From Escherichia coli O157:H7 (GTDB lineage Bacteria; Pseudomonadota; Gammaproteobacteria; Enterobacterales; Enterobacteriaceae): a stretch of DNA of 64,000 nucleotides. Below, one piece after another: positions 12,101 to 15,100 of this stretch; positions within the stretch are counted from its first letter, which is position 1; every line of letters begins with the position of its first letter. The stretch lies in NCBI RefSeq assembly GCF_013167455.1, contig NZ_CP038328.1; one strand, written 5' to 3'. Made by a program: the position numbers.

Positions 12101-15100
12101 CGCCGGTCTGGTGTTTTTAGGCGCAGGCGTTTTCTCATGGCTAAGCCTTGAACCGGTGATCTTGCAGCGTCTGCGTAGTTCGGGAGAATTACCCACGGCA
12201 CTGCGGACATCACTCGGCATTCAGCTCGCTCCTGCGCTGGTGGCCTGTAGTGCCTGGCTGAGCGTCAACGGCGGCGAGGGTGACACGCTGGCGAAAATGC
12301 TTTTCGGTTATGGACTGCTGCAACTGCTGTTTATGCTACGTCTGATGCCATGGTATCTCTCCCAGCCATTTAATGCTTCATTCTGGAGTTTCTCGTTCGG
12401 CGTATCTGCACTGGCAACCACCGGTTTGCATCTGGGGAGTGGCAGCGATAATGGATTTTTCCATACGCTGGCGGTGCCGCTGTTTATCTTTACCAATTTT
12501 ATTATTGCAATACTGCTCATCCGTACTTTGGCGCTTCTGATGCAGGGAAAATTGTTAGTCAGAACCGAGCGCGCCGTTTTAATGAAAGCAGAGGACAAAG
12601 AATGATCATTCGTGACGAAAATTATTTTACTGATAAATATGAATTAACCCGCACACACTCTGAAGTACTGGAAGCGGTGAAAGTGGTTAAACCGGGTAAA
12701 ACGCTGGATCTGGGCTGTGGCAATGGTCGTAACAGTCTTTACCTGGCAGCCAATGGTTATGATGTTGACGCATGGGATAAAAATGCCATGAGTATCGCCA
12801 ACGTCGAGCGCATTAAATCCATTGAAAATCTGGATAATTTACACACCCGGGTCGTTGATCTGAATAACCTCACATTTGATGGAGAGTACGATTTTATTCT
12901 TTCGACTGTGGTGCTGATGTTCCTTGAGGCTAAAACCATCCCAGGGCTGATTGCCAATATGCAACGTTGCACTAAACCTGGCGGTTACAACCTGATTGTG
13001 GCGGCGATGGATACCGCTGATTATCCATGTACCGTCGGCTTCCCGTTTGCCTTCAAAGAGGGAGAATTACGTCGATATTACGAAGGCTGGGAGATGGTGA
13101 AATACAATGAAGACGTCGGCGAGCTGCACCGCACCGACGCCAACGGTAATCGTATTAAACTGCGTTTCGCCACGATGCTGGCACGTAAAAAATGACCCGG
13201 TAAGAACAAAGCGCGTGAAAATTCCCCACGCTGAGATGGTTTACTGTCCTTCTTTTCGGTAAGCATATTTTTTATCGAAGGGATGTGAAATTAATCACAG
13301 TAGTCGAAGTTTTTTAGCAGCTTAACTTACTGAAATTTAACTACTGATGATTGACTTAGCCCCTTTTGCGGCATTGACTATGTCGTCTGAAAAGGGGCTA
13401 AAAAAATTTATTTTCACCAACACTTTTTTTGCCACAACACGAAGCGGCGCTTTTTGCTATAACTTAAAAAGTAATATAATCATCTCAGGAAACTATTCAT
13501 GCGTACCACATCATTTGCGAAAGTTGCAGCTTTATGCGGCTTGTTGGCTCTGTCTGGTTGTGCCTCTAAAATCACCCAGCCAGATAAATATTCTGGTTTT
13601 TTAAACAATTACTCTGATTTAAAAGAAACAACCTCGGCTACAGGTAAACCGGTTTTACGTTGGGTAGACCCGAGTTTTGATCAAAGCAAATATGACAGCA
13701 TCGTCTGGAACCCAATCACTTATTATCCGGTACCGAAACCTTCGACCCAGGTAGGGCAGAAAGTTCTGGATAAAATTTTGAACTATACCAACACCGAAAT
13801 GAAAGAAGCGATAGCGCAGCGTAAACCACTGGTTACCACCGCGGGGCCGCGTAGTCTGATTTTCCGTGGGGCCATTACCGGTGTAGATACCAGCAAAGAA
13901 GGGCTGCAATTCTATGAAGTGGTTCCTGTTGCATTAGTGGTTGCGGGGACGCAAATGGCTACAGGCCACCGTACCATGGATACTCGCTTGTATTTTGAAG
14001 GTGAGCTGATTGATGCAGCGACTAATAAACCGGTTATCAAAGTCGTTCGTCAGGGCGAAGGTAAAGACCTGAATAACGAAAGTACGCCAATGGCTTTCGA
14101 AAATATTAAACAAGTTATTGATGACATGGCGACCGATGCCACCATGTTTGACGTTAACAAAAAGTAGTTCCAGACGCGCCATCGTTAGATGGCGCTTTTT
14201 ATTATCGGTTTCTGTCAGCGATTAAATTCAACACCACGTAACAAACGCCTCCGGCAATTAATCCCCAAAACGCAGAACCAATCCCGACCAGCGTCAATCC
14301 ACTTGCCGTTACCAGAAATGCCACCACCGCCGCGTCGCGCTCACGCTCATTATGCAGCGCCTGATACAAACTGCCGCCAATGGTACTCAACAGCGCCAGA
14401 CCTGCCAGCATCTGGATCCAACTTACGGGCAGGGCAGCCATCATCCCGGTAATGGCACTACCAAACAGACCTGCGAGCAAATAGAAAATGCCTGCAACGG
14501 CAGCTGCCAGCCAACGTTGATCTTTATCCGGATGCGCTTCCGGGCTTTGGCAAATAGCCGCGGTGATTGCCGCAATACCGACGGAATAAACGCCGAAAGG
14601 GGAAAAAACCAGTGCCAGCAATCCAGTAAACACAATCAACGGCGAAACAGGAGCCGAATACCCGGCTGCTTTCATTGCTGCGATACCCGGTGCGTTTTGC
14701 GATGCCATCGTCACCAGAAAAAGGGGGAGTGCAACGCTCAGGCTGTGAGCAAACGAAAAATCAGGGGTAATATAAGTGGGGAGAACGGGTTTAAAGACAA
14801 CATCAGTTGTGACAACGTCACCTTGCGCGATAACGATCACGATCCCAATAATCATCGCGGCAATTACCGCATAGCGCGGCGCAACGGCCTTGGTTGCCAG
14901 CCATACCAGCAACATACTTCCACACAACGTAAATTGACCGTCCAGACTGGCAAACGCCTGTAAACCAAAGCGTAATAAAATCCCGGCAAGCATTGCTGCC
15001 GCAAGCGAGTGCGGAATAATGCGCATCAGACGAGCAAAGAGTCCCGTTATGCCGCAGAGGACTATTAACGCGTTGGTGACAATAAAAACGCCGATGGCTT

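Follow-up and report, generated by a model that had tools for sequence, protein, structure and literature searches.

The spacer between the tehB and ydcL genes of Escherichia coli O157:H7 contains a long inverted repeat, and this article describes the structure, conservation and probable role of that element. The window, that is, the whole stretch of DNA that was analysed, comprises 64,000 nucleotides (nt) of contig NZ_CP038328.1 (RefSeq assembly GCF_013167455.1), and all the positions refer to it. Both genes as well as the spacer between them are 100% identical to E. coli O157:H7 PV15-279, which confirms the gene names given in an earlier reading of the same DNA made without database searches (the sequence-only reading). 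An inverted repeat formed by TAGCCCCTTTT (13357-13367) and AAAAGGGGCTA (13390-13400), with 22 nt between the arms, had been reported there and was found again at this position; a repeat finder extends it by one base on each side (13356-13367 and 13390-13401), with 12/12 positions complementary. The repeat lies 161 nt 3' of the tehB stop codon, in the 3' untranslated region (UTR) of tehB and on its sense strand, and RefSeq has no annotated feature between the two genes. The genes and the elements considered below are the following.

12602..13195, plus strand: tehB, the last gene of tehAB (open reading frame [ORF] list; RefSeq annotation of the 100%-identical O157:H7 record)
13356..13367, plus strand: 5' arm of the hairpin, TTAGCCCCTTTT, whose core GCCCCTTTT is kept across Escherichia
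13368..13389, plus strand: segment of 22 nt between the arms, which includes CATTGACTAT (RNA fold; alignments)
13390..13401, plus strand: 3' arm of the hairpin, AAAAGGGGCTAA (repeat finder; RNA fold)
13402..13414, plus strand: tail after the stem, AAAAA and then TTTATTTT, the A-run occupying the position of a canonical U-tract
13415..13445, plus strand: C-rich, G-poor stretch (11 C, 3 G), in composition compatible with a Rho loading region
13424-13438, plus strand: box TTTTTTTGCCACAAC, in its cross-genus form TTTTTG(C/T)CACAAC, conserved about 20 nt upstream of the -10 block (alignment)
13455..13463, plus strand: putative ydcL promoter, an extended -10 (TGCTATAAC) in which the C at -13 is sigmaS-like, with positions invariant in 20 genera
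13499..14167, plus strand: ydcL, the downstream gene, encoding a DUF3313 lipoprotein (ORF list; RefSeq annotation)

Perfect inverted repeats with arms of at least 12 nt and a spacer of 3-40 nt occur in only two places in the window. First-order Markov simulations produced a mean of 0.19 such repeats per window and at least one in 14% of the simulated windows. By itself the repeat is only moderately improbable, and it is considered non-random because it is conserved and positioned as described in the following sections.

RNA structure, tail and conservation of the hairpin

In plus-strand RNA the helix formed by the two arms is continued by an inner helix of 7 bp (13368-13374 with 13380-13386), which includes two G.U pairs and closes a 5-nt loop, TGACT, leaving a 3-nt bulge (CTG) at 13387-13389. 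According to the RNA fold, the outer and inner helices together form a composite hairpin of 19 bp. The plus-strand fold of 13340-13425 has a minimum free energy of -26.4 kcal/mol (z = -5.0) and none of 200 shuffled sequences was as stable, while the minus-strand fold of the hairpin region reaches -22.8 kcal/mol (z = -3.25). The entire tehB-ydcL spacer behaves in the same manner when folded as RNA, with z = -5.6 on the plus strand vs -3.4 on the minus strand.

The bias toward the plus strand extends to related genomes. When the best hairpin was searched for with identical rules on both strands, the plus-strand hairpin was the more stable one in 19/24 loci of Escherichia, Citrobacter and Salmonella (mean difference, -3.9 kcal/mol) and in 28 of the 43 loci of other genera, with 5 ties, these being loci which share ancestry and are not phylogenetically independent. 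The plus strand is favoured because of the G.U pairs, as a plus-strand RNA predicts; an asymmetry of G.U pairs is meaningless for duplex DNA. The few substitutions that have occurred within Escherichia follow the same rule. They comprise a C->U change opposite G (locus L010) as well as an A->G change opposite U and a replacement of U.G by C-G (both in locus L007), and the outer pair of the hairpin appears as U-A, U.G or C-G in the genus; pairing on the plus strand is kept in all of these changes. Three wobble-type changes (C->U opposite G, A->G opposite U) preserve pairing on the plus strand only.

The hairpin is a stable, G+C-containing stem-loop on the transcribed strand and 3' of a gene, as expected for an intrinsic terminator, but the U-tract of a canonical intrinsic terminator is absent. 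The tail AAAAATTTATTTT has no T in the first 5 nt past the 12-bp stem, and the T-rich TTTATTTT starts only at 13407. The A-run differs within Escherichia (GAAAAA, GGAAAA, GATAAA), and TTTATTTT is mostly kept. The sequence-only reading had noticed the missing U-tract and had concluded that the repeat is not a standard intrinsic terminator, and rightly so: AAAAA occupies 13402-13406 immediately after the stem and a terminator scan makes no call. A terminator score of the d'Aubenton-Carafa type is about -60 for the E. coli hairpin; of the seven hairpins of other genera that occupy this position and were scored, four reached +7 to +45 and those of Kluyvera, Trabulsiella and Enterobacter asburiae gave -43 to -12, values which are comparative only, as a formula after d'Aubenton Carafa et al. 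(1990) was combined with modern energy parameters.

Of 5,426 complete E. coli genomes, about 5,400 have the repeat, which is chromosomal and is kept throughout the genus Escherichia. The median is one copy per genome, as derived from 5,412 and 5,406 genomes in the near and distant searches, respectively. Phages contain no copy, and the five matches among plasmids are all to records that contain this locus itself and are either chromosome-sized or large and non-mobilizable, so that no true plasmid copy was found. A mobile or dispersed repeat (REP, ERIC, MITE) was rejected on these grounds, since the element is single-copy and has no phage or true plasmid copies. A permissive Rfam search of 12500-14500 yielded best matches of 17-23 bits, compared with gathering scores of 50-79 (E 0.67-5.6).

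Across six Escherichia lineages, 16/20 arm positions are invariant and the mean pairwise identity of the arms is 0.91. The third codon positions of tehB and ydcL in the same lineages show an identity of 0.74-0.76 and about 48-50% of them are invariant. The stem, whose arms vary less than third codon positions, is thus under purifying selection, a finding that speaks against a relic with no function. The remaining parts of the locus give identities of 0.85 (loop), 0.79 (A/T tail) and 0.95 (ydcL promoter region), and no stretch of the locus varies more than the tehB-proximal spacer (13196-13256), with an identity of 0.59 and 11 invariant positions out of 61. Two E. coli chicken isolates carry a tandem duplication of the loop segment TTTTTCGGCATTGACTATGTC, namely GPEC1035 (L087 260-325), in which the segment is partly triplicated, and GPEC996 (L088 1975-2025); these duplications either arose by slippage at the hairpin or are artefacts of the assembly.

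Position relative to the ydcL promoter across Enterobacteriaceae

Conservation across Enterobacteriaceae, which the sequence-only reading had suggested as a check, was examined in 80 ydcL loci, one genome per species, and this comparison led to the terminator-derived interpretation given in the next section. Most of the 80 loci have a stable hairpin whose end is 51-59 nt upstream of a conserved TTGCTA, both where tehB precedes it and where another, unrelated gene does. The hairpin of Enterobacter, Leclercia, Lelliottia, Klebsiella, Raoultella, Yokenella, Trabulsiella and others is a textbook terminator, with a short GC-rich stem and 4-7 T among the 8 nt after it. Escherichia (E. coli, three cryptic-clade genomes and E. 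albertii) and Citrobacter have a longer hairpin of very different sequence, with a tail of 3-7 A and only 1-3 T in 8 nt (4 T in one cryptic-clade genome), and the two Salmonella loci (arizonae/diarizonae) also have a longer hairpin and no T-tract, with a tail that is not A-rich (1 A in 8 nt). The potential to form a hairpin was retained across the Escherichia-Citrobacter-Salmonella divergence despite a complete change of sequence. The E. coli hairpin is the positional counterpart of the intrinsic terminator that precedes the ydcL promoter in most Enterobacteriaceae. It is probably also its evolutionary counterpart, either descended from that canonical terminator or replacing it, the U-tract having been lost in the Escherichia/Citrobacter/Salmonella lineage.

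The promoter used as a landmark in this comparison is the block TTTGCTAT.A (TGCTATAAC in E. coli), located about 35 nt before the ATG, which is the only promoter element common to the 20 aligned genera. In the alignment T115, T116, G117, T119 and A120 are invariant, and T114, C118, T121 and A123 are nearly so. From general knowledge of promoters, TGCTATAAC would represent an extended -10 of the sigmaS type, and transcription of ydcL would start near 13470. A genomic-SELEX (systematic evolution of ligands by exponential enrichment) peak of the RpoS holoenzyme was reported in the tehB>ydcL spacer (PMC5493296), and apart from this peak nothing on the spacer was found in the literature. During a growth transition of O157 Sakai, ydcL was among the genes that changed and tehA/tehB were not (PMC2241611).

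The hairpin ends up about 55 nt upstream of the conserved -10, in E. coli as in the 20 aligned genera, and in E. coli at about -114 to -69 from the predicted ydcL start. Because the -10 (13455-13463) is downstream of the hairpin, the latter is outside the ydcL transcript produced from the conserved promoter. A promoter scan detected no sigma70-like plus-strand promoter in the intergenic region upstream of the hairpin. The proposal of the sequence-only reading that the repeat could be an RNA structure of the ydcL leader does not agree with this arrangement, in which the conserved -10 follows the hairpin and no promoter is predicted before it. A cis-regulatory RNA of the ydcL 5' UTR would be placed between the transcription start and the ATG and might match an RNA family; the hairpin has neither this position nor such a match.

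With regard to the promoter itself, the upstream region of ydcL in loci L012-L086 has both TTTTTG(C/T)CACAAC and TTTGCTATAAC, which are kept across Enterobacteriaceae. The distance of 23 nt from TTGCCA to TATAAC exceeds what a -35/-10 pair allows, and the first of the two boxes may therefore be bound by a regulator. In most other genera a palindrome of the TGCATATCTGCA type occurs between the -10 and the ribosome-binding site, and Escherichia has GTAATATAATCATC instead.

A candidate 3'-end stem-loop of the tehAB mRNA and the competing explanations

These observations lean, though not strongly, toward the repeat being a terminator-derived stem-loop with which the tehAB transcript ends, belonging to the class without U-tract that is known from Rho-dependent transcripts. 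The steady-state 3' ends of Rho-dependent E. coli transcripts were mapped just past stable stem-loops without U-rich tails; C is enriched over G downstream of such stem-loops, with rut sites just beyond, and protection from PNPase and RNase II was proposed as their role (Dar & Sorek 2018; PMC6061677). The tehB-ydcL hairpin resembles this class (PMC6061677) in being a stable stem-loop which is placed where a transcription unit ends and has no U-rich tail. The 80 nt past the stem contain 16 C vs 8 G, the GC skew is -0.30, and 13410-13469, with a C/G ratio of 2.1, is the regional maximum in 60-nt windows; the stretch is, however, short and A+T-rich and overlaps the promoter-upstream box.

A sequence of events can be proposed on this basis. 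The stem-loop would form in plus-strand transcripts leaving tehAB and, without a U-tract, would probably be poor at releasing RNA polymerase on its own; efficient factor-independent release is unlikely because no U's adjoin the stem, as follows from established knowledge of intrinsic termination. The polymerase would then pass the hairpin and be halted within about 100 nt, before ydcL, and the most plausible factor to stop it would be Rho, which could load on the C-rich, G-poor stretch at 13415-13445. Subsequently, 3'-5' exonucleases may trim the RNA back to the base of the hairpin, which in this manner would set and protect the 3' end of the tehAB mRNA. As a result, the hairpin would stabilise this mRNA, and the sigmaS-type promoter of ydcL would be insulated from tehAB transcription.

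Several points weigh against this interpretation. The Term-seq supplements that were searched by gene name and coordinate have no transcript-end entry for tehB, ydcL or the genome coordinates 15015xx-15018xx. The hairpin is longer and its loop larger than in typical terminator-like 3' hairpins, and both the loop motif CATTGACTAT and the ATTGACT located 5' of the stem are invariant in the genus, which a role open to any stable hairpin does not explain. The stretch with more C than G falls on the box conserved upstream of the promoter, which may be a different reason for its composition, and only about 100 nt are available for Rho to act before the ydcL start codon. Covariation within Escherichia was not significant, as there is too little variation, and for this reason the support for the structure comes from its replacement across genera, the strand bias and the conservation.

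Comparison with known systems places the hairpin close to, and partially outside of, familiar classes. With canonical intrinsic terminators it shares a stable sense-strand stem-loop with a G+C core, its location downstream of an operon and the same position relative to the ydcL promoter, but here A's follow the stem, the loop has 22 nt (or the hairpin is a 19-bp composite) vs the usual loop of 3-8 nt, and the score is far below threshold. From the stem-loops of Rho-dependent transcripts (PMC6061677) it differs in exceeding the sizes reported for terminator-like hairpins and in the short C>G stretch that overlaps a promoter-upstream box, and both the dependence on Rho and the 3' end are, at this locus, inferred properties.

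Extragenic inverted repeats of the REP/BIME type occur at gene ends and are able to stabilise the upstream mRNA. The tehB-ydcL element is likewise an extragenic inverted repeat at a gene end, but in over 5,400 E. coli genomes it is confined to a single site per genome and, to our knowledge, does not resemble the REP consensus. The composite helix of about 19 bp, with an internal bulge and between two co-oriented genes, may also be likened to the intercistronic hairpins processed by RNase III, of which phage T7 R1.1 and rpsO-pnp are examples.

Among the alternatives, two keep the hairpin within the history of a terminator. It could still be a weak, non-canonical intrinsic terminator which releases the RNA itself at the distal TTTATTTT (13407-13414), perhaps with NusA/NusG and no participation of Rho. 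Its position as the counterpart of canonical terminators, the very stable stem, the retention of most of TTTATTTT in Escherichia and a consensus fold that permits a weak outer helix (GAUGA/UUUAU) reaching the remaining U's are all consistent with this view. However, that outer helix has two G.U pairs, the score of about -60 and the missing call of the terminator scan point the other way, and the 5-7 nt past the stem are A's (G/A in other Escherichia), so that the hybrid at the point of release would be rA:dT and not the weak rU:dA known from intrinsic termination; on the whole this explanation is unlikely. If instead the terminator simply decayed and its remains have yet to erode, the hairpin would have no function at all, as the loss of the U-tract, the non-significant covariation and the two chicken isolates whose loop duplications cause no apparent harm could suggest. 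The 16/20 invariant arm positions, compared with about 48-50% of third codon positions and 11/61 positions of the adjacent spacer, argue against such a relic, as do changes that keep pairing and a hairpin potential that outlasts complete sequence turnover in the deeper divergence, and it is regarded as quite improbable.

The other explanations assign the repeat to the regulation of ydcL or of read-through. A cis-regulatory RNA, either an attenuator or a stability element, could reside in a long ydcL leader if transcription came from an unrecognised upstream promoter (e.g., one dependent on a CRP site) or from read-through of tehAB. A perfect, genus-conserved CRP core located 57 nt upstream of the hairpin, the unusually good folding of the whole spacer on the plus strand (z = -5.6) and the loss of the U-tract, which can be read as an adaptation permitting read-through, would fit this possibility. 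It is nevertheless very improbable: no acceptable plus-strand -10 is found at class I/II distance from the CRP site and the promoter scan gave none, the conserved ydcL promoter is downstream of the hairpin, Rfam provides no match, and locus L007 as well as all the Citrobacter and Salmonella loci are devoid of the CRP segment and still have the hairpin at the same position. The repeat could also be a site at the DNA level, upstream of the ydcL promoter, in which a transcription factor recognises either the inverted repeat, as in the protein-binding palindrome that was the second proposal of the sequence-only reading, or the ATTGACT direct repeats. The arms and both ATTGACT motifs are invariant across Escherichia and are placed at about -70 to -115 from the predicted ydcL start, and ydcL responds to several conditions and to deletion of rob. 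Half-sites of 12 bp set 34 bp apart from centre to centre are, however, unlike the dimeric operators that are generally known, and an informal inspection by eye gave no convincing match to IscR type 2, the Fur box, the marbox or CusR. Moreover, orthologous promoters elsewhere have unrelated sequences with the same hairpin potential at the same position, and both the asymmetric G.U pattern and the stability favour the plus strand; these facts speak against the palindrome proposal, and a DNA site is highly improbable.

A broader possibility combines the hairpin with the CRP-type palindrome, a second hairpin and the ATTGACT repeats into an Escherichia-specific regulatory module of the tehB 3' UTR, which would control read-through from tehAB into ydcL or give rise to a CRP-dependent RNA. 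It is considered quite improbable; if it were true, the change from U-tract to A-run in Escherichia, Citrobacter and Salmonella would have been adaptive, with termination giving way to read-through or processing under regulation.

The hairpin is real, conserved, ordinary in kind and hitherto unannotated, and it is unusual only by the absence of the U-tail. If it is the 3'-end stem-loop of tehAB, it provides a likely 3' boundary for this transcription unit, beyond which the ydcL promoter is situated, with little import beyond annotation. The locus would also be a natural example of a canonical terminator turning into a U-less 3'-end hairpin at a fixed position upstream of a conserved promoter, since most Enterobacteriaceae have the textbook terminator and one clade has a constrained, strand-biased hairpin with an A-rich tail instead of the U-tract. 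This makes it a convenient test case for the dependence of U-less hairpins on Rho and on exonuclease trimming.

Other elements of the spacer and of the window

A segment of about 130 nt (13203-13331), located between the tehB stop codon and the hairpin, is specific to Escherichia, and the corresponding distance in Citrobacter and Salmonella is about 30 nt. In Escherichia sp. MOD1-EC7003 (L007) it is cleanly missing between TGACCCG and GAAATTTA, and tehA is also fragmented in this genome. The segment includes the perfect CRP-type core mentioned above, TGTGAaattaaTCACA (TGTGA-N6-TCACA), at 13284-13299 in the tehB 3' UTR. It is the only such core in the window, with 0.07 expected by chance. All the Escherichia loci with the segment retain it, and other genera lack it. 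Neither strand offers a -10 at a suitable distance from it, and the literature search retrieved no work on CRP for this site.

A second long inverted repeat, AATCACAGTAGT / ACTACTGATGATT (13293-13304 / 13340-13352), with 12 bp and one bulge, is located immediately 5' of the hairpin. Its 5' arm overlaps the CRP-type site, and together with the main hairpin it gives the z value of the plus-strand spacer RNA. A long-range pairing of 13307-13323 with 13392-13408, which would place a U-tract after a composite stem, was rejected, as it is not kept in other Escherichia and its 5' partner is deleted in L007. The direct repeat ATTGACT occurs at 13350-13356 and 13373-13379, 23 nt apart, with one copy abutting the 5' arm and the other in the loop; both copies are invariant across Escherichia although nearby bases of the loop vary. 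The near-consensus TTGACT hexamers were discarded as -35 elements, because reading of the sequence revealed no acceptable -10 at 16-19 nt.

The minus strand has a promoter-like sequence, TTCACA-16-TATGCT (13289..13262), the -35 of which shares bases with the CRP-type site, as well as a terminator-like hairpin (13231..13213) followed by the tail GCTTTGTTCT; together they could delimit an RNA of about 50 nt ending just before the tehB stop. The block AAGCATATTTTTTAT at this candidate RNA is kept in the genus. A small minus-strand RNA as a conserved gene was rejected, given that no structure is conserved across Escherichia and that conservation within the spacer is lowest here (identity 0.59). 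A small ORF at 13347-13604 (85 aa), which overlaps ydcL out of frame, was also dismissed, as a 1-nt change in the length of the A-run shifts its frame in K-12 and most E. coli.

Downstream of ydcL, ydcO follows directly in the O157:H7 window (14168-14201); in K-12 (locus L002 4069-5710) a remnant of the IS200/IS605 family, consisting of a tnpA pseudogene and insQ/tnpB, is found between ydcL and ydcO. The window has one further perfect inverted repeat with arms of 12 nt or more, at 26336-26370 (13-nt arms and a 9-nt loop). It is located 40 nt downstream of a plus-strand ORF of 474 aa that ends at 26296, and as no T-tract follows it, it represents, after the tehB-ydcL element, the second U-less hairpin at a gene end.

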